DNA of 57,277 bases, filler included, from Sphacelaria rigidula (lineage: Eukaryota): NCBI GenBank assembly GCA_964200075.2. It is 4 parts of 4 records of this genome, joined end to end, with 100 filler letters (N's around TTAATTAATTAA, not from the genome) between each part and the next. Parts side by side here need not be neighbours in the genome. Positions count along the whole stretch, not along the records: positions 28,691 to 42,934 come from CAXNAA020002362.1; 3 more parts are not named here. One strand, 5' to 3'. The position numbers and the translations under genes are program-made. Below the pieces are notes generated by a model that saw only the letters and a list, made by a program, of their open reading frames with translations, had not been told where the DNA came from and made no database searches. Every line of letters begins with the position of its first letter. Position 1 is the stretch's first letter. Positions 12,205 through 48,179 of the stretch are shown here, piece by piece.

Positions 12205-12525
12205 GATATAGTTGATGTAATGGTCCGACTGTCGCCATTGGGGTGGGGAAAACGAGGGTTCGATTCCCGATGCGTTGGGTTTTTTCTGCGTAGTATCTGA
12301 TTCCCAGCGTGGACAGCGTGAGAATGTGAGTGAAAAGTAGTTGACCAAGTTTGGTTGACGAGAGTTGATGCGGTGCGGGAAAGTGTTGGTCATGATCCAA
12401 TCCGCGAGACCGAAATGTAACGCGTGTGCCGGGGGGAGACGGGTTGATCCCTTGAGACCACGGACTCGTCCCGAGGAAGAGGAGGGGTTCAAAGTGCGAC
12501 AAATACATGAAAAAAAAAAAAAAAC
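12205..12525 (+). mobile_element. tRNA-derived SINE
   Basis: A-box-like tgatgtaatgg, B-box ggttcgattccc, conserved tail gagaccacggactcgtcccgaggaag, A15 tail. Colinear with 23986-24300. Confidence 0.8.
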
Positions 12526-14246: not shown

Positions 14247-14346
14247 NNNNNNNNNNNNNNNNNNNNNNNNNNNNNNNNNNNNNNNNNNNNTTAATTAATT
14301 AANNNNNNNNNNNNNNNNNNNNNNNNNNNNNNNNNNNNNNNNNNNN
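14247..14346. other. Artificial contig-joining spacer
   Basis: N44-TTAATTAATTAA-N44, which has stops in all six frames. Confidence 0.97.
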
Positions 14347-16870: not shown

Positions 16871-18681
16871 CCGCACGACGTAGCACCGTCGACTTCTGTG
16901 TTCAGGACATGCACACGTTACATGAACAGTGATTTATTCGATTCGCCTTGTACGAATGACGGGGTTAGTTTGGATAAACGTGCAGAGAAGTCGTGTGCAC
17001 GAGTCAAGCGCGAGAGAAAAAATAGCACAATTGACGTCACACGAATCAATAGTGGGTTTTATATACGAATATCTCCCTCCTTGTATGCCCATCCTCTCCC
17101 ACAAGCAGAGAGCGACAGACTCACGTCACCTCAGACCCGATCAACCATTGATAAATATGATCGGCGTGGTGTTTGGCGATCCACGTTTCCCTCACGGCGG
17201 TTTGGTTCGCAGAATGCGCCACAGCATGCAGCTATGGAGCCGGCAGTCATATGCGGTATAATGCATGGGGTACTGATCGCTCTGTACTGTGCTATACTGA
17301 AGGTACACTACCTCACTGGACTGGAGGGGGGGCACAGGTAGCCGAGAAGTAGAAGTAAGGTACGCTCGACGAAGCGGCTTGCGGGGCGGTTGTTGGCGGA
17401 GTAGTCGATGCCCTGAACCCCAAATGCGTGAGAAAGAACCTCGGGCAGAAAAAAGAAGAGCGAGCTACGAGTATAACGTGCCACCATTGTCAATGAATAT
17501 CGTTAAGATGGAAATTAAGAAGCGGCGACCATGGACGGCAAGAGACTTGAGGCGCAAAGGAGGGAGGACACTACACTTGGAAAGATCACGAGCAGCTGCG
17601 GTGATCCATGACTCATGGCAGTAGCACCGAAGTCGATGGAACTGACGAGCACCTTGTGTGCGCTCTCCTCAAGTGCAGCAACCCACAAGATACTAGCTAG
17701 GCAGTGAGGACAACAACAGGGGACGGTATGATGGAAGGCCCGACTGATGACAGAGAAGCAGCGAGTGACCAAGCGAACGCTCTTCAATACATACACAACC
17801 CCCCCCCCCCCCCCCACACCCCCACCCCCACCATCACCACCCCAGGACCCCCTACCGTTGGACACCGCATAACGAAGAAANNNNNNNNNNGGGGGGCCGC
17901 GGCAAGAAAAAAAGATCGGTGGGTTTCCAAGCGGACGCCTGTTATTCATTACACAACCCCCCCCCCCCCCCGATCCATCTGCCCCCTATTCCTCCTACAT
18001 GCAGGTTTTTTTGGCTGAAGAGAAGACAATCTAAGTAATTTATGTTTACGAACGCCATGATTCCGCACAAGGAAACGGTGTTCCCACAACGAATGCTACA
18101 TATGCACTCTTCAGTCTTCCGATCAACGACGGCGGTTTGATACGTTGCTGTAAGTCTCCTATCTCGAACCAACAGCCCTCACTAGGCAGTATTCGGGGTG
18201 AGAGCTCTTCCTCGCGGGATTGCGTCGACGCGAGGGCAGTAAAAGCGGCTGCCTACCCCTTACAGCAGCTAGATCGTTGACTAGACAAGCAGGCACGCAA
18301 ATGACTGTACAGGGGCTGACTCGGCTGTAATCACGGTTCTTGCTTTTGTGCCACGAGGGTGCACCTGTACCTCAAATTTCTTCGAGTGATAACGCACCTT
18401 ACTGCAGACGCGAGTACCCAAGTAGCTGTTAGGGTCCCGAATCGTATTCAGGGCTTTATCCGGGTGGTCCGATGAGAGCAAAATAGGGAAGTGAATCACA
18501 GCTAGTAAAAAGGTACATCGTAAGTCAGGCCGTACTAACGAACCCCAGAAAATGTAAACTATAGTCTTGACCGTGATAATCAGATCAGAGGGGGAGGGGG
18601 GGTGCGAAAGAGTCGTGCAGTCCGAATGACGAGCGGGAGGAGTCTACGTTTGGTTGATAGAACATGACCAGACAAGCCGCA

Positions 18682-23985: not shown

Positions 23986-24300
23986 GCGCCCCGGTGGTGT
24001 AATGGTCCGATTGTCGCCGTTAGGGTGGAGAGAACGAGTGTTCGATTCCCGATGCGTTAGGTTTTTTTTTCGTAGTAACTAATTTCCACCGTGGAAAAAG
24101 CGTGAGAACGTGAGTAAGCAAAGTAGTTGACCGAGTTCGTTTGACGTGAGTTGACGCGGTGCGGGAGTGCTGACCCGATCGGCGAGAACAAAATGCAAGG
24201 CGTGTACCGGGGGAGAGATGGGTGGATCCCTTGAGACTGTTAGACCATGGATTCGTCCCGAGGAAGGGGAGGGATTCAAAGTGCAACAAAGAAAAAAAAA
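23986..24300 (+). mobile_element. tRNA-derived SINE in EXO1 intron 4
   Basis: A box ggtggtgtaatgg, B box gttcgattccc, shared tail and A-rich end. Colinear with 12205-12525. Confidence 0.8.
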
Positions 24301-25192: not shown

Positions 25193-28100
25193 GTCGCACT
25201 TTAACTGATCCCCCAGAGGTCCAGCCGTGGTCTCATGATGGACGTCTCCAAGAAACACGAAACTGAAACACGCTCTGAGAAAAAGAAGGAACAAAAAAAA
25301 AAAAGGGTCGAACGGAACGACATAGCAGACTAAGTCGAGACGAAAAAAGAGGTGATGAAGAAGTCAACACAAGCAAAGCACAGAAAGAAATGGCCGAGCC
25401 TAAAAAAAGAAAAAAGGAGAAAAAGAGAAAAGTACAGAGAAAATAAAATAAAATACAGCAAAACGATGGGAAAAAAAAAAAAGAGAAAAAAAGGGAAACC
25501 ATAAAAAAAAAATAGAAAAAGGAAAAGGCCCAAGGGATTCAAGGCAGCAGAGTAGATACAGTCACACACCAGTGGGCACCGGAGAGACTGTAGCAACATT
25601 TTATCAGCTGCTCGGTGCCTCGGGTGACGTGCAGATTTTTTTGTTTTTGTGACAGCACCCTTGGACCGCGATTTCGAGGAGCACATGTTTTTTTCATACC
25701 GCGGTGCTCCCGATGTTTGTCGTTCCGTCGCTTTTTAATTTTTTTGCGATGGTCCTTGATCGCTCGACCACGAAGGACCGTGGGATTATTCTCTTGGAAA
25801 AAAATGTGGCTATTTTTGCATGAGATATGCAGACATGAGTGCTTGACTGTTCTACAAACAGGGGTTCGCCTGGCCTGTGTTGAATGACAAGATGAACTAG
25901 ACTCCACTGTGTCAGTAACAGTTTAAACTCCGCAGAGGGTGCACAGTAGCTGTCAAGTTACTATCGATGTGCGATAATAGGAAGAAAATCGTTGGTTTTC
26001 ACAGACGGTTCACTCGGCCATCGCGGAACAAAAACACTCAGCCTCTTCTCAATGCAGAGAACTGATGACTCGTCGATAGGCCTGTTGAGGTGGGTAGCTT
26101 TGAAAAGTGAAAACAAGAGGGGTTGCCTCAAAAATCTATCTCTCAGTAAAACTCTTGTTTGCCAGAAAACCTTACATCCAAGCCGTTGACACGTTGGTCT
26201 CTTCAACATCCTGAGATTATCCTGACTTTTTGTACACGACCCTTGTATGACTTGAGCTGTTGCTCTTGGTCCATTCGTCATTCTACCTTCTTGTTCCACC
26301 TCTTGAGTTACTACGATCTTTGCTACCTCGTCCCTTCTCAGCTCAACCTTAACTAGTTGTTCAGCTGAGCACACGTAGATGGTCGAAACTGTATTTATCC
26401 AAATTTCCAATGCCCAACATATTCCACATCCCACACAATCATCAAAACCTCTCGAGTGGGTTGGATAGTTGCACCAATGAAACAGGAATTATTCGAGGTC
26501 GTCGCTTACCCGAGTAGTTGTTTGCGCGCAACCATAATACTTCGAAGTAGTTGATAATTACTACTTGTACTTATCCGGGGGTGGGAGTTTTTTGTAAAAT
26601 ACCCGAGCTGTCTTTTTTTTTTGGCTTCAAATGGATCCACGCTCGTTGCTTGCCTGCCCCTCTTGGACAACCTGAACGAAATCCAAGAGACTGCGCCGAG
26701 TGACTGAGCGACGCTAGCACATCACTCGATAGGGACATCAACAGCCGGACCGAGTGGTTTCGCTCCTAGCCCTAAAACTCCACGTGCTTTTGCTCCCCAC
26801 CCCGTGCTCACACCCGCACGCAGGGCAAATAGGCAAATTTGGCAGGGGACTACGGGCCTTCTCGGGGGAGGGGGGAGGGCGTATGTTCGTTCAGCTGGCA
26901 GCTCTTGCAGGTGAGTCACGAAAATAACTTGTTCATCGGAATGTAGTGGGCGTTTTGAGCAAATCTATGAAAGGGCACCCCCCCCCCCTCCCCCCAACCG
27001 CCTGGTCCGGCGAGAAGCCGGCATGCTCCGTCCCGGCTTTGTAGGGGCAGACCCCCTATGGGGTTGGCGTCGGTTGGCAATGGCGCTGTAAAACATGCCA
27101 CGCACTGCGTAAGCTAGGCACCCACGTGACCGATTTGTTTTTGCGCGCTTGCTTTTTTTTTTTGTTGTGGTAAGCATGATGGTAGTCGAGCTAGATCATG
27201 TTGTCCGGGGTGGAAAAACCTCAACTCCGCGCAAAGGAGATGATTGTACCACGTGGTGTTGAAATGGTGAGACGTCCATGAGGCAGTGAAAAAGCTGTGG
27301 CTGTCTCTGGAAGTGGCAATACCAGAAAATAAAGCAACTCATTGTTGGCTGTCATCCGAATGTAAGGCAATCAGTAGGCTTCGGGCCAAACAATCTTGGC
27401 AGGATGCAGCTTACCCTTCATGCGACGCGCCGAACACACCCCGGCGCTTCGCGCTTGATGATTGATTAGGAGCCTGGTCCGACGATAACCCGGCGTGCTC
27501 CGTCCCGGCTTTGTAGGGATGCGAGGTCAGTCATCTTGTGACAATGGCATGCAAGATCATGAGTATACCCTCCCCACCCACCACTCGAGAAGCATATAAA
27601 GAAGCTGACTTCCTACAAAAGGAATTGGTTCCTTCATTTGACAGGGATCCCGTATGTGGAAGGATTTCTACAAGACTCAATCCTTTCGGGCGTTTTCAAC
27701 AACCAGTATTCTCCTTGGGTCCGCGAGTCCGCGACGATGTCACGCGGTAGAAGCCTTTTTACGCAATTCGGCTCCGCTTGCGGCGCTATCAGATGGGTTT
27801 CCATTGAAAAATGAGGCGTTATCGTGGGACATTCGTTTCAATGTTGAAGTACTGGTAATACTGACTTCAGTTTTTTCAGTACCACTACATCGCGAGAGCC
27901 AGTGCTACTTACTGCCCGTGTGTAATGGTCGAGTACCCGACCGTAGAATCTACGGTGACAGGTACATGCAACGTGGTTTAGGAAGTTTCAGGAGTGATTG
28001 TGCGATAGCCCTCCTCCAGAAAAACGGCTGGTGTGAGGAGGCGAGATCTACACGTGAATCAAATTGACAAGATCCGAGCACACCTTGCACCTGGGAACTC

Positions 28101-28590: not shown

Positions 28591-28690
28591 NNNNNNNNNN
28601 NNNNNNNNNNNNNNNNNNNNNNNNNNNNNNNNNNTTAATTAATTAANNNNNNNNNNNNNNNNNNNNNNNNNNNNNNNNNNNNNNNNNNNN
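28591..28690. other. Artificial contig-joining spacer
   Basis: N44-TTAATTAATTAA-N44. Confidence 0.97.
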
Positions 28691-32166: not shown

Positions 32167-32811
32167 TGATACAAGTAAACGGCAGTCTCCAGTTGTTGTC
32201 AGCATTCCCTTAACTCTACAGTGCAGGTTGATCACTGAACTAGGCAAACAACAAAACTTCGGTCAACGATTACAATATTCCACTGTTTCGTGTGGGACCT
32301 TTCATTTTACATATTATTTGACTGCCCTTCATTTGTGCACGAGTTCGTTCATATTCATTTACTACAGGCCGATCCTTTCACATCTGTTCATGAAGTACTC
32401 CAAACTCACCGTCAATCTTGTAACAATCGTAAGTTCACAGCGCGTGGGGAGACAGTCCAACGCAGTACAGTACGCGTCGATCGTCAGGATATCCTTGTTC
32501 ACAGCTTCAGGTGATTCGATTTCTTTTGTTTCTTGGTGGTGTTGATAGCCAGAGTCTTCTCGAGAAGTTCTTCTGAACACCAGGGCATCCTAGTGTTGCA
32601 CCGATTCTTAGAAAGAATCGGATTCAATCAGATGTAAGAGGCATGTTTTTATGTACTCCGTATCTTGACGGATTACTGAACATCCTTACCCCTGACCGCA
32701 GGTACTAGCCAGTTCCCGCGATCAGCCCTCCGGGCGCGTATCTTCGTTCCGAATCAACGGCCCATCATTGTGCTGTCCCCCTTCAACCGCATCACGCCGC
32801 GATCCGTAAAA
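32167..32811 (-). repeat. 3' LTR (645 bp)
   Basis: Minus strand reads TGAGGGGGG (PPT) then TTTTACGG (TG mutated)...GTATCA. No PBS follows. Confidence 0.85.
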
Positions 32812-32929
32812 CCCCCCTCAGTCCTAGGATTGAAAAACCCTGGGACTGACGTGATTCACACGATGGATCGCCGCGTTACCATGTCCCTCTTCCGAGTTCA
32901 GCGTCGGGGTGTAGTCGTCGATCTTGAAA

Positions 32930-33200
32930 ATCGTTCTGCCGGGTTAGACCACGTAGGGAATTCAAACACCGTGCAGAACAATCTCAAACAGTCTCGGCAA
33001 CTCCCGCTCTTGTAGATCTCTCTGCCAGGTTAGACCCCGTAGGGAATTTGAAGACGGTACAGAAACGATCCCATCCAGTCCGGAGAAGTCCTTGATCTTG
33101 TTGACCGCTCTGCCGGGTTATACCGCGTAGGGAATTAGAACATCGTACAGAAACGATCTCACCCAGTCCGGAGAGGTCTTCAATCTTGTTGACCGCTCTG
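32930..33200. repeat. ~88-bp tandem repeat in the element 3' region (also 40105-40375 and 43265-43455)
   Basis: ctctgccgggttagaccacgtagggaattt...cagaaacgatcccatccagtccggaga repeated about three times. Confidence 0.85.
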
Positions 33201-33634
33201 GGCTGTCCGTAAACCGTTTGCGGATCTTGGTACACCGGGGAATCTACCTCACGATTGAGCCCCCTTTCTGCTCGAGATGGTGTATGAGATGGACGTGGCC
33301 TGTCTGCGGTTGATATAATTTCCACAAGGCATGAAACACATCCGACTGTACCGCAGTGTATTATAATCTCCATGATCCAAGAGTCACGAGGGTGGTGTCT
33401 GGAAGAAACATTCTCAGTCATCAACGGCGTGAGAAACGATGGAACCAGTGAAATGAATAGCAGCGCTCCACCTGTACAACGATAGCGAACAAGACAAATA
33501 AAGGGGAAGGAGAACGAAGGGAACAGCAATATAATCGGACAAAACAGGTTCACGCGTGTGCATTTGGCCAGGGTATCGCGTGTCGGGGACAGCCAGGTAT
33601 AAATTCATGGACTCCCAAGAGAATTCTGACTCCA

Positions 33635-34105
33635 TGTCAACCTGTTCGGACAGCATGGGAAAATCCTGGCCGCTTGTCAACCTGCTCGGACAGCATGGGA
33701 ATACCTGGATGCTTGTCAACCTGTTCGCACGCGAAAGGGAAACTCCTGGCGCCCGGTCAACCAGTTCGAAAACATATGGAAAATCCTGGCTCCCTGTCAA
33801 CCTGTTCGAAAACATATGGGAAATCCTGGATCTCTGTCCGCCTGTTCGCGCGCGAAAGGGAAACTCCTGGCCCCCTGTCAACCTGTTCGAAAACATATGG
33901 GAAGTCCTGGATCTCTGTCAACCTGTTTGCGCGCACAAGGGAAACTCCTGCTCCCCGGTCAACCTGTTCGGAAAAATATGGGAAATCCTGGCTCCCTGTT
34001 AACCTGTTCGAAAACATATGGGAAATCCTGGATCTCTGTCAACCTGTTTGCGCGCAGAAGGGAAACTCCTGGCCCCCTGTCAACCTGCCTGTTCCAAAAC
34101 ATATG
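33635..34105. repeat. 39-41 bp minisatellite (TGTCAACCTGTTCG...GGGAAATCCTGG)
   Basis: About 12 units with a few alternating variants. Sister arrays at 40808-41312 and 47056-47440. Confidence 0.95.
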
Positions 34106-34564
34106 GTCTTGACATCTTGAGCCTTCGCCCTCGCCCATTTTCCTGTATGCAATCAAATCCTGCTTGTTCGCTGTATAGTGCAAGCATATATATATATATA
34201 TATATATATATCGTTCATACAACTTTCTCGTTCATCGATTCGATGTCCGACTCGTATGTTGGCAACTTGCATCGTCTCCGCGATAAACACACGAGTCGTT
34301 CATTACAAGCCAACAGCTTTCATCAGACTATTTCCGATGTAAATCTCGGCAAAGGAATGTGTGGAGCCCATGGACTCTCAAGACCAGAAGAATGCAGCCC
34401 TGCCCCCGGGACGGTCATAGCGCGCAGACAGGTAGACGGTCATCTTCGAATTGATTGTCGGAGCACGCGCATGTAGACGGTTATCTTCGAATGGATTGTC
34501 AGAGCGTGCACAAGTAGACGATCATCTTCGAATTGATCGTCAGAGTGTGCACGAGTATAGACGG

Positions 34565-34848
34565 TCAACGGGAACTGACCTCCGACGACGTCATCTCTTC
34601 CCAATCCCCATCCTCATACTTGATACGGTAATACGGCTGACGGAAGTCGAACACTTCCCCGTTGAACTCCTGTCGCTCACCTTGGCTGTCCACAAAGTGT
34701 TTACGTATTCTGGTCCCTCGAGGAATGAGTCGCAAAGCTTCATCCCGAGCAAAAGAGTTCCTTTCCGCTCGAGATGGGTTAACGGATGGGCGCGGTTTGG
34801 ATTGCGGGTTATATAGTTCCCACAAAGCATGAAACACGTCCAACTGTA
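34565..34848 (-). CDS. Isolated integrase tail: end of chromodomain-like region plus Tudor-like domain
   Basis: QLDVFHALWELY...GTRIRKHFVDSQGERQEFNGEVFDFRQPYYRIKYEDGDWEEMTSSEV, with no stops. Confidence 0.65.
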
Positions 34849-37800
34849 GGGTTAGCAGACCTTAAAATTCGTTATATTGCCCCACGTTACCAGCAACCTC
34901 CACCACTGACTTGGCGTGAACAATGTCAACGAAGACCCACTTACTGGAAGTATGTGCTAAAGAAAAATGGAGGAAAGATCGGTCGTGCAAACCGTTGGTC
35001 AGGAGCACTAAACAAATTCATTTGCGGCGCTTCAGCGGCATTTTCTTGCAAAGGCACAAAAATACTGCTGTTATCGTCGTGGTGCAGAAAAACTGCTACA
35101 GTGGTGGACGCACAAAAGATTGATGCTGCTGAGGAGGTGCAGCAACCTTCTGCCGTGTGGAAGGGTGCGTCCTGTTGTTATTGAACAGGGACGACAGGTT
35201 GCTGCTGCGGTGCGGCTTGCACTGGAGGCTTTAAACTGTTGAGCTGATCCAGCTGGGTAGAACGGTTGAGCTTGCGGGTTTAGAGGAGTTCCACTCATTA
35301 TTTCGTCGGGTTTTCGCGTTGGCTATGCGGTTCTTGGAACGATAACCTGCACGTATATGCCATGGGTATCATAACACCGGTTAAGCGCACTTCATATTAT
35401 TAACGGAGTACCTTACTCCTGCTTAAAGTTCCTGGCGAAATGGGGTTGGGAACGTTCTCAACTCATCAACGGTGAGAAGACACGATCGGGTAAACTGACA
35501 GCATCAATTTTTCCTCGTGATGAGAGCGTGGACATCACCGAGGGAAGACGAACAGGGGTGGAACAGGGAAAGAGGAGAACATGGCAGCAAATTTAATCAC
35601 ATGACAGGTTCATGTGAGCATTCGGCTCAGATTTCCCTTTCATAGGGAATAATCCTCCAATTTCCGGCCTCCTGTTAACCTGCGAGGGCACGCGGGGGAA
35701 AACGTGACTCCAATAACCTGTTCGGCTAGACACGGTCTTGTTATCTTGGGACTTCGTTCTCCTTCATCTCCCTGTGTGTAGTGATTTCCTGCCTGCTCGT
35801 GGGTGAGCCTATTGTATAACGCACGCATACTCCGGACTCACGCGTATTCCCCAATTTATTCGCACGTTGTCGGGCCTCCATGCTAGCATAGATCATGATG
35901 TCCACAATTATTACTTACGTTGTTCAGTACCAGCCAATCGCCTGGTCGGTTTCTGTTCGATATATCTCGGCAAAATAATGTGTGGAACCCGTAGACCTTC
36001 AAGACCAGAAGCCCTGCCCAGACGAATGCAGCCTTGTCTGATGGTAGCCATAGCATGCACGGACAGACAAACCGCGTTGGAATTGGATTGTCAATAGGCG
36101 CAGAGTAGATAGACAACGGGAGATGGTGTAGTGTCCGTCTGGTGGCCTCGTGCAGGTATCTTGTCTCGCAGCACTCTCCGTAGCTGCCCAATCGTGACCG
36201 TATTGAGTTGTTCACCCCAGCCGGGGTGAACATGGGTAAATGGTCCCGTTCCTTGAATTATTGATGACTGGTGGTGGATGATTCTTGATCCCCCGTGTTA
36301 TTTCCTTCCAATAATGTGGAGCGGGTACTCGAAAAGGTGTGTACATTCTAGTAGATACTGTTTTAATCGCTACTCTCAAGTACAACTTGCGCCAGCAGGG
36401 CTAGTTGCACTACCCACTGGTCGCGCGACAGGAGCTTCACGTTCGACTGTCGACCAGCTTCACGTTCGACTGTCGGTCGTTGTAGCACGGAAACGTTCAC
36501 CTCTCAACCCTCATATATATAGCAGACCATAACCGATGATTGTTTGCTCGGGGTTTTTTTTCCAAAAGTTGTGAACATAACTACACTACACGGTTGGGTC
36601 TGGTTTTTATTTAGTATCGGAGCAGATCTCCCCCAGCTCTCGAACTGTCCAGCAGGGAGAACTGCGAGGGGTTTACATCCGTTTTACATAACAGTAAACC
36701 TCCCCGATCAATGACCTGCCCCCCTGACCGGGGGGTGCTGTGTTTCGTCCATTCAAACTTTTCAACTTCCTGTTAATGACAATTGTCCGCTCAGTCTGTT
36801 GGCAGGCTCAATTCATAATTTGATAAAGACTCGCTAAGGCAGGTCGTGATAGATTTCGGGTTTGATAGACGAAACTTTTCGACCTTCCGCGCATCATTAC
36901 TTTTAACCGCCACCTTATCTACATCATTTGTACCAGTTTTGAAGTACGGCCCTTCGAGCATGGTTGGCGGTGGTGAACTGCTGATGTAGCGTCACCAAAA
37001 CCTGACTGCCCGTCTGGATGCGCTACGGTATCTGTTGTGAAGCTATACAGAAGCAGCGGTATTGAATTTTAGTGCGTTTCAAAACAGCTCAGTCACTCAA
37101 ATATCATGTGATGACATGGGTGTGGTACTGCGTACATAGTAAGTTTGCCCAGATGCAAGTGTAGGGGAAAATGACAGAGATCTGACCATTTGGTTTACAC
37201 AATTTCGGCATACTGAGGATGTACCGGGCCCGAATCTGCTTAATTACTTAGTGTGTGAAGCTCGCTTCTCATGTCAACCTTCCTGCCCAAGTGAATGTAA
37301 AGAAGCGCGGGTATAGTGGAATGTTCACGTGGCGTTGGCTTCAACTTGAAGACCCCTCCACAATCAAACATATCTTGTTTCCCTACTGTCTCAGCAACAG
37401 CCTTCAAGCTCCCTCAGGTGTCGAAGCTTTTCCTGTCCGTTCTGTTGCGTTGCGTTCACGAATCGCGAACACTGTTTTGGATTGCATGAGCAGCGATACT
37501 GTCTTCGTGTTTGTCCCTACCGACCCATCTTAGTCGCACGCAGTCCTGTCTGCACTTCTGTTGAAAATTCGTGGGTATGTGGACTCTTTCATATTCGGTG
37601 AGACGAACAACGTTCTAGTGCCGTGTGTTGGGCACCAGTGCTGTCGGCAGAAAGGATTAATTTGACATCAACACCCCTCATTTCGGAATAATTTAACCGT
37701 ACCGGTGAAGATACCATCATTTTGTTTCATTGTTTCCCGTGATCCCTGTCCCGTTCGAGCGCTATCGCAGATTCACAAGTATTTCACCATAACCGTAACA

Positions 37801-39363: not shown

Positions 39364-39985
39364 TGATGCAAGTAAACGGCAGTCTCCAGTTGTTGTCAGC
39401 ATTTGCTCAACTCTACAGTGCAGGTTGATCACTGAACTAGGCAAACAACAAAACTTCGGTCAACGATTACAATATTTCACTGTTTCGTGTAGGACCTTTC
39501 ATTTTACTTATTATTTGACTACCCTTCATTTGTGCACGAGTTCGTTCACATTCATTTACTACAGGCCGATCCTTTCACATCTGTTTCAATCTTGTAACAA
39601 TCGTAAGTTCACATCGCGTGGGGAGACAGTCCAACGCAGTACAGTACGCGTCGATCGTCAGGATATCCTTGTTCACAGCTTCAGGTGATTCGATTTCTTT
39701 TGTTTCTTGGTGGTGTTGATAGCCAGAGTCTTCTCGAGAAGTTCTTCTGAACACCAGGGCATCCTAGTGTTGCACCGATTCTTAGAAAGAATCGGATTCA
39801 ATCAGATGTAAGAGGCATGTTTTTATGTACTCCGTATCTTGACGGATTACTGAACATCCTTACCCCTGACCGCAGGTACTAGCCAGTTCCCGCGATCAGC
39901 CCTCCGGGCGCGTATCTTCGTTCCGAATCAACGGCCCATCATTGTGCTGTCCCCCTTCAACCGCATCACGCCGCGATCCGTAAAA
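39364..39985 (-). repeat. LTR (622 bp) flanked by both a PPT and a PBS
   Basis: Copy of 32167-32811 with a ~23-bp deletion. PPT at 39986-39994 on one side, PBS on the other. Confidence 0.85.
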
Positions 39986-40807
39986 CCCCCCTCAGTCCTA
40001 GGATTGAAAAACCCTGGGACTGACGTGATTCACACGATGGATCGCCGCGTTACCATGTCCCTCTTCCGAGTTCAGCGTCGGGGTGTAGTCGTCGATCTTG
40101 AAAATCGTTCTGCCGGGTTAGACCACGTAGGGAATTCAAAGACCGTGCAGAACAATCTCAAACAGTCTCGGCAACTCCCGCTCTTGTAGATCTCTCTGCC
40201 AGGTTAGACCACGTAGGGAATTTGAAGACGGTACAGAAACGATCCCATCCAGTCCGGAGAAGTCCTTGATCTTGTTGACCGCTCTGCCGGGTTATACCGC
40301 GTAGGGAATTAGAACATCGTACAGAAACGATCTCACCCAGTCCGGAGAGGTCTTCAATCTTGTTGACCGCTCTGGGCTGTCCGTAAACCGTTTGCGGATC
40401 TTGGTACACCGGGGAATCTACCTCACGATTGAGCCCCCTTTCTGCTCGAGATGGTGTATGAGATGGACGTGGCCTGTCTGCGGTTGATATAATTTCCACA
40501 AGGCATGAAACACATCCGACTGTACCGCAGTGTATTATAATCTCCATGATCCAAGAGTCACGAGGGTGGTGTCTGGAAGAAACATTCTCAGTCATCAACG
40601 GCGTGAGAAACGATGGAACCAGTGAAATGAATAGCAGCGCTTCACCAGTATAACGATAGCGAACAAGACAATAAAGGGGAAGGAGAACGACGGGAACAGC
40701 AATATAAACGGACAAAACAGGTTCAAGTGTGTGCATTTGGCCAGGGTATCGCGTGTCGGGGACAGCCAGGTATAAATTCATGGACTCCCAAGAGAATTCT
40801 GACTCCA

Positions 40808-41312
40808 TGTCAACCTGTTCGGACAGCATGGGAAAATCCTGGCCGCTTGTCAACCTGCTCGGATAGCATGGGGAATCCTGGATACCTGTCAACCTGTTCG
40901 CACGCGAAAGGGAAACTCCTGGCCCCCTGTTAACCTGTTCGAAAACATATGGGAAATCCTGGCTCCCTGTCAACCTGTTCCAAAACATATGGGAAATCCT
41001 GAATCTCTGTCAACCTGTTCGCGCGCGCAAGGGAAACTCCTGGCCCCCTGTTAACCTGTTCGAAAACATATGGGAAATCCTGGCTCCCTGTCAACCTGTT
41101 CCAAACATATGGGAAATCCTGAATCTCTGTGAACCTGTTTGCGCGCACAAGGGAAACTCCTGGCCCTCTGTCAACCTGTTCGAAAACATATGGGAAATCC
41201 TGGCTCCCTGTCAACCTGTTCCAAAACATATGGGAAATCCTGAATCTCTGTGAACCTGTTTGCGCGCACAAGGGAAACTCCTGGCCCTCTGTCAACCTGT
41301 TCGAAAACATAT
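40808..41312. repeat. 39-41 bp minisatellite, second copy
   Basis: Same consensus as 33635-34105, with a regular three-unit (~121 bp) higher-order period. Confidence 0.95.
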
Positions 41313-41391
41313 GGTCTTGACATCTCCAGCCTTCGTCCTCGCCCATTTTCCTGTATGCAATCAAATCCTGCTTGTTCGCTGTATGGTGCAA

Positions 41392-41427
<36 letters not shown>

Positions 41428-41777
41428 TTACACAACTTTCTCGTTCATCCATTCGATGTCTGACTTGTATGTTGTCAGCTTGCATAGTCTCCACGATAAA
41501 CACACGAGTCGTTAATTACAAGCCAACAGCTTGAATCAGATTATTTTCAGTGTAAATCTCGGCAAAGGAATGTGTGGAACCCATGGACTCTCAAGACCAG
41601 AAGAATGCAGCCCTGCCCCCGGGACGGTCATGGCGCGCAGACAGGTGGACGGTCATCTTCGAATTGATTGTCGGAGCACGCGCATGTAGACGGTTATCTT
41701 TGAATGGATTGTCAGAGCGTGCACAAGTAGACGATCATCTTCGAATTGATTGTCGGAGTGTGCACTAGTATAGGCGG

Positions 41778-42188
41778 TCAACGGGAACTAACCTCCGACG
41801 GTGTCATCTCTTCCCAATCCCCATCCTCATACTTGATACGGTAATACGGCTGACGGAAGTCGAACACTTCCCCGTTGAATTCCTGTCGCTCACCTTGGCT
41901 GTCCACAAACTGTTTACGTATTCTGGTCCCTCGAGGAATGAGTCGCAAAGCTTCATCCCGAGCAAAAGAGTCTCTTCCCGCTCGAGATGGGTTAACGGAT
42001 GGGCGCGGTTTGGTGTGCGGGTTATATAGTTCCCACAAAGCATGAAACACGTCCAACTGTAGCTCAGTGAAACTGTCTAAAACTTCCTCCTCTGAAAGCC
42101 AGTGAGACTCGGTTCCGTCGTGAAACAACCCCCGATAGGCCCACTCCCAGGACGATCCTGATCCTAACACCACCTTTCTATCTGTCAA
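41778..42188 (-). CDS. Integrase C-terminal chromodomain-like plus Tudor-like module
   Basis: LTDRKVVLGSGSSWEWAYRGLFHDGTESHWLSEEEVLDSFTELQLDVFHALW followed by GTRIRKQF...FNGEVFDFRQPYYRIKYEDGDWEEM. The upstream integrase is broken. Confidence 0.7.
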   Translation of the reverse strand: MTDRKVVLGSGSSWEWAYRGLFHDGTESHWLSEEEVLDSFTELQLDVFHALWELYNPHTKPRPSVNPSRAGRDSFARDEALRLIPRGTRIRKQFVDSQGERQEFNGEVFDFRQPYYRIKYEDGDWEEMTPSEVSSR

Positions 42189-42934
42189 TGTATACAGTTG
42201 CGGAACGGTCGTGATCTCCTCGGCTAACCCTGAACATGCCCCCCCAAGCTAGCTAACAGACCTCGCCTGGACCTGAATGCGGCAGCTGTTCTGGGTGCAC
42301 ATTAAATTTCTCCACGTTGGCCGCGAACACCGTTCGCTCTTGTACTTTACGCACCTGCATTTTGACCTCAAGATTAAGACCTGGTATCACCCCCCTGCTG
42401 CACCGTCCCCGGCCCAGTCTACAAGTCATGTACAAATTTGGCCGGTACATCTTCGTTCAGAAGGGAGCTGTCAGACTCTTTGACTAGCGTCATATCTTAT
42501 ACCTCTTCCCTACGCCGGTGGCGTTGGGTTAACAGCTCCTGAAAGTCCTTCAATTTTTGTCGCTGTTGCTTTACCGTGTTGTTCAACTGTAGGGATTCTG
42601 CTTTAGGTGACACAGAGTCGACTTGGGTGCGAGGCTCGCGCTCAAAAGTAGCATTAATCGCGTTGAGCTATCCGGCAGTGACTGGTCTGAAGTAGTATGA
42701 TGAATCCATACAGCAAGATACACATACTCGTCCCCCCATTGTAGACGCGGCTCACATAGCTCGGCTAAAACGAACTCCCCCCCAGCGTCACTTCAAAGGA
42801 AATAGGGCGTTTCGAGCGTCAAGAACAGTTCCAGCAGACCCTTAACTACGTGCTCAGTAACCTTGGGCTGCTAGTGAAAGAGCAAAGAGAACTTGGTTGC
42901 TCGATCCATAACAACCAACAAGTACTTATTACCA

Positions 42935-43034
42935 NNNNNNNNNNNNNNNNNNNNNNNNNNNNNNNNNNNNNNNNNNNNTTAATTAATTAANNNNNNNNNN
43001 NNNNNNNNNNNNNNNNNNNNNNNNNNNNNNNNNN
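42935..43034. other. Artificial contig-joining spacer
   Basis: N44-TTAATTAATTAA-N44. Confidence 0.97.
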
Positions 43035-43439
43035 AGTTGGAATACCCGTAGGTCACATCAACTAGCCCTCCGAGCCCATCAGTCGAATAGCTGGGCTCAT
43101 CATTGTACTGCCCTTCTTCCATGTATGCCGCGATCCATAACACCTCCCCTCAGATCTAGGATTGACAAACCCTGGGGCTGAACGTGGTTCGACGATGGAT
43201 CGCCGCGTTACCACATTCCTCGTCCTCGCGTATTCGACGTTGTTTTCGTGCAGCCGTCGATCTTGGTAACCGCTCTGCCGGGTTAGACCACGTAGGGGAT
43301 TTAAACACCGTACAGAAACAATCCCATCCAGTCCGGAGAAGTCCTTGATCTTGTTGACCGCTCTGCCGGGTTAGACCACGTAGGGAATTTAAACACCGTA
43401 CAGAACCGATCCCATCCCGTCCGGAGGAGCTCTTGTTCC

Positions 43440-44880
43440 TGTTGATCGCTCTGGGCTGTCCGTGAACCGTTTGCGGATCTTGGTACATCGGGGAATCTAC
43501 CGCGCGATGGAGCCCCTCTCTGCTCGAGATGGTGTATCAGATGGACGTGGCCTGGTCTGCGGTTGATATAATTTCCCACAAGGCATGAAGCACATCCAAC
43601 TGTAACTCAGTGCAACTGTCCAAATCCTCTCCTCTGAAAGCCAGTGTGGCTTAGCTCCGTCGTGAAACAACCGTTGATGTTCTCACACTCACGACGATCC
43701 TGGGCCCATCCGTCAGAGCATATAGTAGAGGTGTGGACGTGATGTCCTCAGCAAACCCTAAATCTGCCCCCCCCAAGCTAGCTAACAGACCTCGCCTGGA
43801 AATGAGTGCTGCAGCTGTTCTGAGTGCACATGAAGTTTCTTCACGTTGGCCGCGAACACCGTTCGCTCTTGTACTTTACGCACCTGCATTTTGACCTCAA
43901 GATTGAGACCTGGTATCACCCCCTACTGCACCGTCCCCGGCCCAGTCTACAAGTCGTGCACTAGTTTGGCCGATACATCTTCGTTCAGATGGGAGCTGTC
44001 AGACTCTTTGACTAGCATCATATATTATACCTCTTCCCTACGCCGGTGACGTTGAGTTAACAGCCCATGAACATCCTTCAATTTTGTCGCTGTTGCTCTA
44101 CCGTGTTATTCAACGGTAGGGATTCTGCTTCAGGTGACACAGATTCGACTTGGGTGCAAGGCTCGCGCTCAAAAGCAACATTAATCGCGTTGGGTTATGC
44201 GGCAGTGACTGGTCGGAAGTAGTGTGATGAATCCATACAGCAGGATGCACATACTCGTCCCACCATTCCAGACCCTGCTCACATAGCTCAGCTAAAACGC
44301 CACACAACCACTCTCCGTATCTCTCCAGGGCACCCTGATCGCGAGGGTGATCTGCGGGATCATGATCCAGTTTCACCTTCATCCACATGGCATACATGGT
44401 TTACTACTTCCAAAGTGAATTCCCCCCCAGCGTCACTTCAAAGAAAATAGGGCGTTTCGAGCGTCAAGAACAGTTTCAGCAGACCCTTAACTACGTGCGC
44501 AGTAACCTTGGGCTGCTAGTGAAAGCGCAAAGAGAACTTGGTTGCTTGACCCATAACAACCAACAAATACTGATTACCAGAAGTAGAAATCTGCTTTATG
44601 TCCGATATGCTCATCTACATCATCTCCCAGAACTACAAGAAGCGGGCGGGTCGCACCATTATGGTGTGACTATTAGTACGTTTGCGTTGGCGACAATCAC
44701 AAGACAGCACGTGTTTGCGAGTATCGACGGAGAGACCGGGTCACTCATAGCGTGCGTCGACCACTACAGTCGTTTTCATCACTCCGGCGTCCCCTTGCGT
44801 AGTGTGCACCAACGCGAGCAGGCCAGGCACTATACTGCGTGGAATAGCCAACTTACTTGGTGCCCAACTTACCTGGCGCC
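43440..44880 (-). pseudogene. Degenerate Gypsy integrase (HHCC, core, GPY/F-like, chromo-like)
   Basis: Broken frames: IPRSIVPGLLALVHTTQGDAGV...VLSCDCRQRK; SGNQYLLVVM; PADHPRDQGALERYGEWLCGVLAELC...WDEYVHPAVW. Confidence 0.85.
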
Positions 44881-45204: not shown

Positions 45205-45415
45205 CTTCCTCTAGTTCCGAATGAAAAAACCCATTCGTTAAATCAACACTCGTACAGTACTTGGATTCTGCTAGCCCACCATACATGGTCTGCATATCCC
45301 TCAAACTGCCACTGTATTACTACATAAGTTGGTTCAGCCCACGATAATCTTGACATAGTTTAAACTACCGTCCGTCTTTCTTTCGAACCGTGACGCAGGC
45401 GGCCGTCCGTGCTAG
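45205..45415 (-). pseudogene. N-terminal fragment of reverse transcriptase
   Basis: AACVTVRKKDG..FKLCQDYRGLNQL...GLAESKYCTSVDLTNGFFH matches Gypsy RT motifs. YxDD and RNase H are absent. Confidence 0.8.
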
Positions 45416-45715
45416 CGTCGATCGAACATAGCCCGGGACTAGCTTGCTAGCGAAACCTTCTGAGCTTACGTCCTTCGTTAAATGCAGCAGCCACTGCAGC
45501 GTAGTATCGTCGTCCCACGTCACTCCAAGATTTTTGCACACCTCACTTGATGCTGCCAGTTCGTTCCGACCAGACAACCTCCCCGTCGAGTCGTCACCGA
45601 GCGCGCTTGGCTTGACAGCACAGAAGAGGCCCAAAATTGCCGGATCTCCTTGGCTGGTGAAGTGGTCGGTGTCAACAGCTCCGAGTTTTGGGGGACTGTT
45701 AGCCACGAACCATAC

Positions 45716-46062
45716 TCACGGCGCCTCCGGCGAAGGCCGAAATCTCGATCGCTCTCCGAAAGATAACGTGCTCTTGTTTCTCCTGAAGAAGCTCGCTGCC
45801 GGAATAAACCCATATGGTAATCCATGGACCACCCGGACCCATACCTTTACTAACTTATCCTTTGTGCGAAAAAGAATAGGAATTGTCGCTGACCCTAGAG
45901 TTTTTATCTGAGGTATCTTACTGTTACTAGGGTTAGCGGACCTCAAAATTTCTGCTCCCTGCCGTTGCAACTTATTTGCTATTTTACCCCACGTTACCAA
46001 TACCTCCACCACTGTTTCGATGCATAGCTCCTCCCCCTGCCCCGGTGCCCAGTAACACCGTT
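45716..46062 (-). pseudogene. Degenerate retroviral-type aspartic protease
   Basis: VLLGTGAG (catalytic D of DTG replaced by G) then IKTLGSATIPILF...VRVVHGLPYGFIPAASFF. Confidence 0.65.
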
Positions 46063-47055
46063 ACTGGTGAGCGGTGGCTACTCTTGCTGTGGTGCCAAAT
46101 TTCAATTTGTACCCACAGCTGCTGTGCATCGTTCCTACTCGCTTCGGCTAAAATGGCGTTCGAAGCAGGGGTAGCCCCGGACGGGTGAAATATTTGTATG
46201 CGTACCCATCGGGTTAGGTGGAACCTAGTCCCTAGATCGATGCTACAGAGGCTGCGGCAGCGGCGGCAGCAGCTGAGCAGGGAATATGTACACTGCTGGT
46301 TGCGCCTGGCTTAAGATGAACAATGTCAACGGAGACCCAGTTACTGGAAGTATCCGCTGAATAAAAATGGAGGGAGGATCGGTTGTGCAAACCGTTGGTG
46401 AGGAGCACTAAGCAATTTCATTTGCGGCGCTTCAGCGGCGTTTTATTGTAAAGGCGCGAAAATACTGCTGTCATCGTCGTGGCGCAAAAAACTGCTGCAG
46501 TGGCGGACGCACAAAAGATTGATGCTACTGAGGAGGTGCGGCAACCTTCTGCCGCGTGAGAGGGTGCGTCAACCTGCCGCTGCATGGGAAGGTGCTTGCA
46601 CGGGAGGCTGTTGGACGGATCCCGCCGGGTAGAAGGGCTGGGCTCGAGGGTTGAAGGGGTTGCCACTCATTATTCATCGATTTGGGGTTGACTATGTGAT
46701 AATCGACACTTGAAACCTGCACGCACGTGCCACATAAATGTAAAACACCGTGAACTAATTATGGATGATTCATTGCAGTGTATTACAATCTCCATAATTC
46801 GAGAGTCACGAAGGCGGTGTCTGGAAGAAACATTCTCAGTCATCAACGGCGTGAGAAACGATGGAACCAGTAACATGGATAGCAGCGCTTTACCAGAATA
46901 ATGATAGCGAACAAACAAAAAAAGGGGAAGAAGAACGAAGGGAACAGCAATATAATCGGACAAAACAGGTTCACGCGTGTGCATTTGGCCAGGGTATCAC
47001 GTGTCGGGGACAGCCAGGTATACGTTCGTGGACTCCCAAGGGAATTCTGACTCCA

Positions 47056-47440
47056 TGTCAACCTGTTCGGGCACACATAGGAAAATCCTGGCCCCTTGTC
47101 AACCTGTTCGGACAGCATGGGAATTCCTGGATGCCTGTCAACCTGTTCGGGCACACGTGGGAAAATCCTGCCCCCCTGTCAACCTGTTCGGACAGCATGG
47201 GAATTCCTGGATGCCTGTCAACCTGTTCGGGCACACGTGGGAAATCCTGCCCCCCTGTCAACCTGTTCGGACAGCATGGGAATTTCTGGATGCCTGTCAA
47301 CCTGTTCGCACGCGCAAGGGAAACTCCTGGCCCCCTGTCAACCTGTTCGAAAACATATGGGAAATCCTGGATCTCTGTCAACCTGTTCGCACGCACAAAG
47401 GAAACTCCTGGCCCCCTGTCAACCTGTTCGAAAACACATG
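47056..47440. repeat. 39-41 bp minisatellite, third copy
   Basis: Same TGTCAACCTGTTCG core with a different variant order (about 10 units). Confidence 0.95.
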
Positions 47441-48179
47441 GTCTTGACATCTTGAGCCTTCGTCCTCGCCCATTTTCCTGTATGCAATAAAATTCTGCTT
47501 GTTCGCTGTATGGTGCAAGCATATACATATATACATATATATGGTTCATACAACTTTCTCGTTCATCCATTCAATGTCTGGCTTGTATGTTAGCAACTTG
47601 CATAGTCTCCGCGGTAAACAGACGAGTCGTTCATTACAAGCCAACAACATTTTTATCAGATTATTTCCGGTATAAATCTCGGCAAAGGTATGTATGGTGT
47701 GTGGAACCCCTGGACTCTCAAGACCAGAAGAATGTAGCCCTGCCCCCGGGGCGGTCATAGCGCGCACAGGTAGACGGTCATCTTCGAATTGATTGTCGGA
47801 GCACGCCCATGTAGACGGTCATCTTCGAATGGATTGTTGGAGCGTGCACAAGTAGACGGTCAACTTCGAATTGATTGTCGGAGCGTGCACGAGTATAGAC
47901 GGCCAACGGGAACTGACGGAGCATCCGTCTGGTGGCCTCACGCAAACACATTAGCATGCAGCTTCGCTCATAGTCGCTCAATCGTTGTGGATCAGGGTTG
48001 ATTATCACATTCATGAGTAGCTACATAGAAATTGGCAGGCAGGCACCAACAATAATAGTTGAGGAGCAACTGTTGCACGCTTCATGCCGTCCTGTGACCC
48101 ACCGCTGCGGCTAAATTCATCAAATAGTAAATAATGGTATGTTCAACAGTGCACCTGGAAACAAACATCCACATATTCA

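Follow-up and report, generated by a model that had tools for sequence, protein, structure and literature searches.

The window, by which we mean the whole stretch of 57,277 nucleotides of Sphacelaria rigidula DNA that was analyzed (filler included), carries on its minus strand the open tail of a broken pol gene, followed by a long terminal repeat (LTR)-like region and accompanied by further copies of the same family (Table 1). An earlier note had reported at this place a Gypsy-type integrase ending in a chromodomain-like and a Tudor-like segment, and every motif that it quoted (DRKV, WEWAYRG, SHWLSEEEV, LDVF, G.RIRK.F, and YYRIKYEDGD.EEM) is indeed found inside this single open reading frame (ORF). 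The ORF lacks its own start codon, and its sole ATG encodes M148. Broken integrase pieces lie upstream of the tail, and the copy therefore represents the frameshifted last ~1.1 kb of pol. The position of the tail behind a Gypsy-type integrase agrees both with these remnants and with intact relatives that carry the same order. The copy itself is dead, non-functional, and uninformative on activity.

Table 1. Features of the broken pol tail, its duplicate, and the sister element, in window coordinates
Feature	Position	Strand	Basis or remark
Open tail of broken pol	41778..42248	(-)	156 codons; coordinates include the stop codon
Predicted chromodomain-like domain	42015..42209	(-)	ORF residues 14-78; AF2 models and VIA-align; no Pfam Chromo match
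Linker helix between both domains	41940..41984	(-)	Residues 89-103; AF2 model
PTM/DIR17-type Tudor domain	41784..41939	(-)	Residues 104-155; PF21743 and SH3-like/Tudor structural matches
Integrase C-terminal SH3/GPY-F remnant, frames -1, -2, and -3	42241..42496	(-)	tblastn with P0001, P0002, P0020, and P0078
Integrase catalytic-core remnant, up to N run	42661..42933	(-)	tblastn with P0154 1438-1567 and P0003 215-340
Two 44-N runs cutting the element	42935..43034	(.)	Sequence 5' of the integrase core absent here
LTR-like 3' region	40527..41792	(-)	Starts 14 nt before the stop codon; boundaries approximate
Second copy: end of chromo-like helix, linker, and Tudor	34565..34861	(-)	Breakpoint 34849/34850
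Sister copy, same family	43392..44851	(-)	~80-85% nt identity; tblastn; H2C2 and rve remnants, SH3 region
Sister upstream part	45206..47917	(-)	LTR-like 46775-47917; gag/protease-side remnants 45437-46136; RT fragment 45206-45433
88-bp tandem array replacing the rest of the sister Tudor	43252..43453	(.)	Same junction at 40087-40374 and 32913-33200

A Pfam scan of the 132 ORFs of at least 75 aa between positions 25964 and 57025 yielded matches above cut-off only for the 41778-42248 ORF and its twin at 34568-34861 (-). Sub-threshold matches to PAM2, SH3_11, and Innexin in the same scan were chance-like, and no rve or RVT match was found among these 132 ORFs, short broken pieces being invisible to a scan of this kind.

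The LTR-like region, which is common to 33353-34579 and 46775-47917, contains 41-bp and 40/81/121-bp tandem arrays. Its shared start reads ...GT(C/T)AGTTCC and its apparent end ...CTGCA. Clean LTR ends were rejected, as TG...CA termini, a polypurine tract, and target-site duplications could not be fixed. A first set of arrays, with a unit of ~40 bp (also 81, 121, 202, and 241 bp), occupies 33622-34088, 40795-41314, and 47052-47441; a second, 41-bp set directly follows the pol stop codon at 34428-34567, 41641-41770, and 47759-47895. Runs of (AT)n occur in the LTR-like region at 41394-41425 and 34186-34211. The N runs at 14247-14346, 28591-28690, and 42935-43034 all follow one pattern (44 N, then 12 bases, then 44 N), which looks like a masking or scaffolding convention rather than ordinary gaps; N are also present at 17881-17890. 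A dispersed repeat pair at 12213-12503 and 23995-24290 (81% identity over 304 columns) is unrelated to the Gypsy element.

Relatives of the tail and the Gypsy-10_Ec32 lineage

When 1.84 billion representative proteins were searched exhaustively with phmmer, 333 relatives of the ORF were returned at E ≤ 1e-3, of which 137 also passed E ≤ 1e-10 and 10 passed E ≤ 1e-30. Two proteins among 483 candidates were obtained by a word-indexed search for longer relatives, namely, P0001 (312 aa), the closest relative of the window ORF (77-79% identity), and P0002 (347 aa). Both extend the ORF upstream into the integrase C terminus and display integrase signatures, i.e., the core end '...HP..QG.VER...', '...GREPRTQLD...', and 'LWTGPW'. 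According to Pfam, RT and/or integrase domains precede the match in 8 of 23 long or repetitive relatives; P0003, P0051, and P0078 combine H2C2, rve, and Tudor, while P0020 contains RVT_1, RNase H, and H2C2. Whether intact members carry the fusion had been left by the earlier note as a check, and the complete Ectocarpus polyprotein P0154 (1881 aa) does carry it, with RVT_1 at 723-882, RT_RNaseH at 979-1082, Integrase_H2C2 at 1349-1404, rve at 1423-1515, and Tudor at 1837-1878. P0154 aligns with ORF residues 18-153 across both halves of the tail (38% identity, E = 9e-25). The same domain order is found in P0168, a metagenomic polyprotein of 2450 aa, and the Ty3/Gypsy integrase arrangement of H2C2, rve, and SH3/GPY-F after RT-RNase H was recovered in P0154, P0003, P0051, P0078, and P0168. 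As for the hosts, a cluster look-up gave Nemacystus decipiens as the source of P0009, P0020, and P0079, the P0051 cluster comprises eight proteins of Ectocarpus sp. CCAP 1310/34, and P0071 of Tribonema minus matches the ORF with an E value of 1.3e-15. The stramenopile distribution suggested in the note is thus borne out, metagenomes being a further source.

Profiles of both halves were built locally from alignment A1 and scanned over 168 proteins, so that hits and detection are not independent of each other. Both halves were detected in the same order, separated by 23 to 33 residues, in 98 of the 168 proteins. The chromo-like half was found alone in 41, mostly short fragments, several of which have 60 to 140 residues remaining after it. 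Another 17 proteins have the Tudor only (2 to 4 tandem copies in 5 of them), and the 12 with neither half are upstream pol fragments or a low-complexity match. The Tudor and the predicted chromo-like domain are conserved as a unit at the end of the Gypsy integrase.

In one metagenomic subfamily (P0090, P0091, P0092, P0094, P0100, P0104, P0106, P0125, P0131, P0137, and P0168), a third conserved domain of ~70 residues is present within 100 to 165 residues after the Tudor, with an approximate motif FG..y.G..v...f..tGW.rG.L ... tF.V.F.G ... v.Lr...Y ... SWn.L. It looks like another small barrel. The Tudor profile gave no match to it (best E = 0.58), and the third domain of P0090 has a weak PcrA_UvrD_tudor match (E = 0.0064).

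A Tudor-integrase fusion has already been published for the Ectocarpus element Gypsy-10_Ec32 (Repbase Gypsy-10_ES; Genome Biol, September 2025, PMC12477816), the only Tudor-bearing transposon described in the papers that a full-text literature search returned. According to that work, the Gypsy families of Ectocarpus form four lineages, each with a chromatin-reader domain, which is a chromodomain in three of them and a Tudor in the fourth, and a homologue of Gypsy-10_Ec32 is reported in Tribonema minus (PMC12477816). Its supplement describes an 11,528-bp element with LTRs of 636 bp, present as a single full-length copy besides numerous deletion derivatives, and another supplementary table gives 87 copies (PMC12477816). 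The window element likewise represents a Ty3/Gypsy pol ending in a Tudor, its relatives are likewise hosted by brown and yellow-green algae, and the many deletion derivatives of Gypsy-10_Ec32 are a further likeness to the window family. A C-terminal Tudor together with Ectocarpus and Tribonema homologues places the element in this lineage, an assignment made via P0154 and P0071 and not via the published consensus; P0154 is itself inferred to be a member of the Gypsy-10_Ec32 family. Tail identity to relatives of this lineage is just 34-41%, which indicates a different family within it, and the LTR-like region here measures ~1.1-1.3 kb with internal tandem arrays versus 636 bp in Gypsy-10_Ec32. 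The view of the earlier note that no such fusion was well described therefore has to be split: the Tudor part was catalogued in 2025, whereas the text, table row, and figure legends examined in PMC12477816 contain no mention of a chromo-like domain before it. What would be new beyond that report is the cryptic chromodomain fold predicted ahead of the Tudor. The published Tudor tail would then be a two-domain tail with a first half of predicted chromodomain fold and a fixed spacing across many relatives, which is a modest gain.

The Tudor half and its putative role in tethering

PF21743 (PTM_DIR17_Tudor) was the only Pfam family matched at E ≤ 10 by the translation of 41781-42248 (residues 107-154, E = 1.4e-8), with a score of 34.8 bits that exceeds the curated cut-off of 27.2; the copy at 34568-34861 (-) also scored above cut-off (36.5 bits, E = 4.3e-9). 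In the Pfam scan of 40 family members, 18 matched PF21743 at E ≤ 5, and the Tudor scores fall under the Pfam cut-off in most relatives (e.g., 21.1 bits for P0154). The AF2 model places strands at residues 109-115, 121-132, 135-140, and 145-148 plus a short helix in this half, and the model and its structural matches, which are of SH3-like and Tudor type, correspond to a four- or five-stranded SH3-like barrel. Both the profile search and the fold thus uphold the PTM/DIR17-type Tudor proposed in the note.

In an alignment of 73 near-full modules, Y/F131 is kept in 58, Y135 in 47, W136 in 52, Y140 in 46, D142 in 55, and W145 in 49, so that each of the five aromatic positions (131, 135, 136, 140, and 145) is retained in 46 to 58 modules. 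An aromatic cluster combined with a DGDWEE motif is typical of methyl-binding cages. Judged from these residues, a Tudor with five conserved aromatic positions is a probable methyl-lysine reader. The window Tudor belongs to the same sequence family (PF21743) as PTM/DIR17-like Tudor proteins. Three proteins with 3 to 4 PF21743 repeats (P0066, P0103, and P0138; 111-132 bits) have Tudors 38-49% identical to that of the window, and these three together with P0140 and P0148, which as a group carry 2 to 4 tandem Tudors, differ from the window element in having neither chromo-like nor transposon domains. Multi-Tudor proteins may be the kind of host protein from which the retrotransposon captured its Tudor.

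We read the region with good confidence as the degraded 3' part of a Ty3/Gypsy LTR retrotransposon of the Gypsy-10_Ec32 lineage whose intact tail probably tethers the integrase to methyl-marked nucleosomes. An intact pol would run from RT through RNase H, H2C2, rve, and SH3/GPY-F into a chromodomain fold, a short helix, and the Tudor barrel. This tail would hold the integrase-cDNA complex on nucleosomes bearing a particular methyl mark, and new copies would consequently land in tolerated, repeat-rich chromatin. Within it, the Tudor would act as the probable methyl-lysine reader and the chromo-like domain as a second, non-canonical contact or a scaffold. Chromatin tethering is a likely function by analogy with chromoviruses, whose MAGGY chromodomain binds H3K9me2/3 (cited in PMC3350952 and by Grau-Bové et al., bioRxiv 2021.11.30.470311), and it is from this precedent that we infer that the tail binds a ligand and directs integration. 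Anecdotally, the window is itself a nest of repeats within repeats, as would fit insertion into repeat-rich chromatin. HIV integrase is tethered via a host Royal-family reader, the PWWP domain of LEDGF/p75. By analogy, a methyl-lysine reader would here also bring the intasome to marked chromatin, with the difference that the integrase of the window family has the reader built in.

As to the mark, Ectocarpus has neither H3K9me1/2/3 nor H3K27me3, and its repeats are associated with H3K79me2 and H4K20me3 (PMC12477816). A chromodomain of the canonical, H3K9me-reading kind would thus find nothing to bind in Ectocarpus. Speculatively, in a host devoid of H3K9 methylation, the reading of methyl marks, H4K20me or H3K79me perhaps, may have passed to the Tudor, with the cage-poor chromo fold contributing a second contact. 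Chromatin-reading retrotransposons shape where genomes accumulate repeats, and their reader tails can serve as probes for histone marks. The usual silencing marks (H3K9me and H3K27me3) are absent from brown algae, and a tail kept since before the split of brown algae and Tribonema would point to the mark that defines 'safe' chromatin in them, a question that is testable.

We regard it as unlikely that the tail is no histone reader at all and that one or both barrels instead prolong the integrase C-terminal domain and bind nucleic acid (DNA or RNA) or a host protein such as a tethering factor or a methyl-arginine protein. SH3-like barrels at integrase C termini can bind DNA instead of histones. 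Generic SH3-like binders (KOW, CarD, the UvrD C-terminal Tudor, and TraI) are among the structural neighbours of the second domain, with Z scores equal to those of histone Tudors, and two of the three canonical cage positions of the first domain are rarely aromatic (see below). Chromodomains, moreover, can mediate dimerisation as well as DNA or RNA binding (PMC3350952). Against this, PF21743 places the second domain in the Tudor family by sequence, its dense conserved aromatics and DGDWEE motif are those expected of a methyl-binding cage, and the position of the Tudor is precisely that of the targeting chromodomain in chromoviruses.

The chromodomain-like half

Pfam Chromo gave no match at E ≤ 10 for the ORF, P0001, or P0002 and none at E ≤ 5 for any of the 40 family members scanned, and a family profile search of PDB chains by sequence retrieved 0 at E ≤ 10. 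The AF2 two-domain model, built with a 40-sequence alignment, is confident for the whole tail (pLDDT 90.3, pTM 0.54), and residues 12-80 modeled alone reached a pLDDT of 93.0 and a pTM of 0.77. In the model, strands at 18-28 and 34-42, a short third strand, and a helix at 62-75 make up a three-stranded antiparallel sheet with a C-terminal helix cap. The picture was much clearer when, independently of Foldseek, this domain alone was compared with 48,161 representative chains by VIA-align; chromo-type domains took ranks 1 to 38 and were covered over nearly the whole domain length, followed by a step down to unrelated folds. The matches include SUV39H1, Rhino, CHD1/4/6, CBX4/7, the HP1 chromoshadow domain, Polycomb, and Clr4; entries without 'chromo' in their title (cpSRP43, ZMET2, eEF3, GEN1, and New1) are presumably chromodomain carriers. 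Foldseek against the PDB found nothing at E ≤ 0.001 with either the two-domain model or the single domain, the chromodomains it listed (MPP8, CHD1, and the Swi6 chromoshadow) having TM scores of 0.48 to 0.64 and E values of only 0.4 to 1.3. Among language-model neighbours of residues 12-80 in the ESM Atlas, the nearest named clusters are Chromo (0.82, 0.81, and 0.81), a concordant although weak lead for the chromo fold.

Across the same 73 modules, the chromo-like half keeps two short motifs (W36 in 62, Y38 in 64, R/K39 in 54, G40 in 42, S48 in 57, and W50 in 55). The resulting Y-[RK]-G followed by S-x-W fits the (W/y)-(k/r)-g of the chromo box and the TWE strand, the published box being (Y/f)-(L/F/Y)-(L/I/V)-K-(W/y)-(k/r)-g (PMC3350952). 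We consider residues 14-78 to be a predicted, highly diverged chromodomain fold that goes unseen by sequence profiles; the chromodomain-like segment of the earlier note stands as a predicted fold and fails as a profile match. That the call is an artefact, residues 14-78 being a small beta-alpha unit whose likeness to chromodomains is accidental, seems quite improbable to us. The missing Chromo profile match, the Foldseek E values, and ESM Atlas scores below 0.9 would accord with such a resemblance, but the 38 leading near-full-length VIA-align ranks with the step down behind them, the fit to the published box and strand, and language-model neighbours that point independently to Chromo argue against it.

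The canonical chromodomain cage consists of Y24, W45, and Y48 in HP1 numbering (PMC3350952). When mapped by motif alignment rather than superposition, Y38 corresponds to W45 of HP1 and is kept in 64 of the 73 modules, while the Y24 and Y48 equivalents are aromatic in one and two modules, respectively; residue 42, next after the Y48 equivalent, is Y or F in 34. On this mapping, the canonical cage looks incomplete, and with one of its three residues kept, the domain is more likely a second, non-canonical contact or a scaffold. Plant group II retrotransposon chromodomains and shadow chromodomains also do without Y24 and usually without Y48 (PMC3350952), and on the motif alignment the chromo-like half would resemble group II chromodomains in mostly lacking an aromatic residue at both equivalents.

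We can only tentatively entertain the possibility that the chromo-like and Tudor domains form one rigid two-pocket reader of the repeat marks H4K20me3 and/or H3K79me2. Such a reader, if real, would be a heterochromatin-homing device that evolved in a lineage without H3K9 or H3K27 methylation, would amount to a new integration-targeting code, and would explain both the loss of the canonical cage in the chromodomain and the added Tudor.

Retrotransposon chromodomains are usually recognisable from sequence. Like chromoviruses (MAGGY, Tf1, and Tekay/Reina/Galadriel) and the oomycete element Chronos, the window family would carry a small reader fold of the Royal family behind the GPY/F region of its integrase, but unlike them it has no Pfam Chromo match, and a Tudor comes after the chromo-like domain. 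The RT tree of PMC12477816 separates four Ectocarpus Gypsy lineages, and of the three with a chromodomain, and of these only, it is stated that they have no relationship to chromoviruses or Chronos. Fusions of Chromo and PHD domains to transposons have been described by Grau-Bové et al. (bioRxiv 2021.11.30.470311), and the passages of that preprint that were consulted contain no Tudor fusion.

Duplicated block and sister copies

Positions 32167-34849 and 39364-42062 are copies of one duplicated block of ~2.7 kb (90-95% identity) lying ~7.2 kb apart, which contains both open Tudor frames, the LTR-like region, and a further fragment of the sister element. Since they sit inside this single block, the two Tudor copies cannot be counted as separate cases. 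Of 285 nt compared, 10 differ (6 of the changes are nonsynonymous and 4 synonymous), and 500 nt of their flanks are 91.9% identical. The earlier note had stressed that the Tudor frame is intact in both copies; both are open, yet with one block and such a ratio of changes this offers no evidence of retention, and the locus bears no sign of selection on the Tudor frame. That the genome has selectively kept frame 41778-42248 as an exapted reader gene or functional fragment is very improbable. In its favor, 156 codons stay open downstream of ~700 bp with two or more frameshifts, the second copy is likewise open, and coding divergence is below the ~8% of the flank. Against it, the ORF has no start codon and continues a broken pol, the duplication took in the flanks as well, the flank divergence is inflated by tandem arrays, 6 of the differences are nonsynonymous against 4 synonymous, and most of the chromo-like domain is absent from the second copy.

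The sister copy at 43392..44851 has indels in the chromo-like domain and retains the first Tudor strand only; its H2C2 and rve remnant (44188-44851) matches P0003 by tblastn with an E value of 2e-46. An internal deletion has removed the RT C terminus and RNase H from the sister element. Its coding sequence enters an 88-bp array after approximately codon 123, and the Tudor profile accordingly recovers only its first 19 to 23 positions at 43392-43496, 40295-40417, and 33121-33243. The arrays comprise 2.3 to 3.3 units with 78-86% matches, and the interruption of the sister Tudor by 88-bp repeats is thus as the note described it.

Upstream of the 34565 copy, positions 34917-35171 are 89% identical to 46317-46570, in the 5' LTR-like/gag interval of the sister. 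Because of this stretch, the 34565 copy appears to be an internal-deletion derivative in which a 5' leader is joined to the end of the chromo helix and the Tudor. Finally, the end of the LTR-like region at 40527-40534 abuts the middle of the chromo-like coding sequence of a sister element (compare 43612), with ACACTG common at the joint, which could reflect either the nested insertion of one family member in another or a recombination product.
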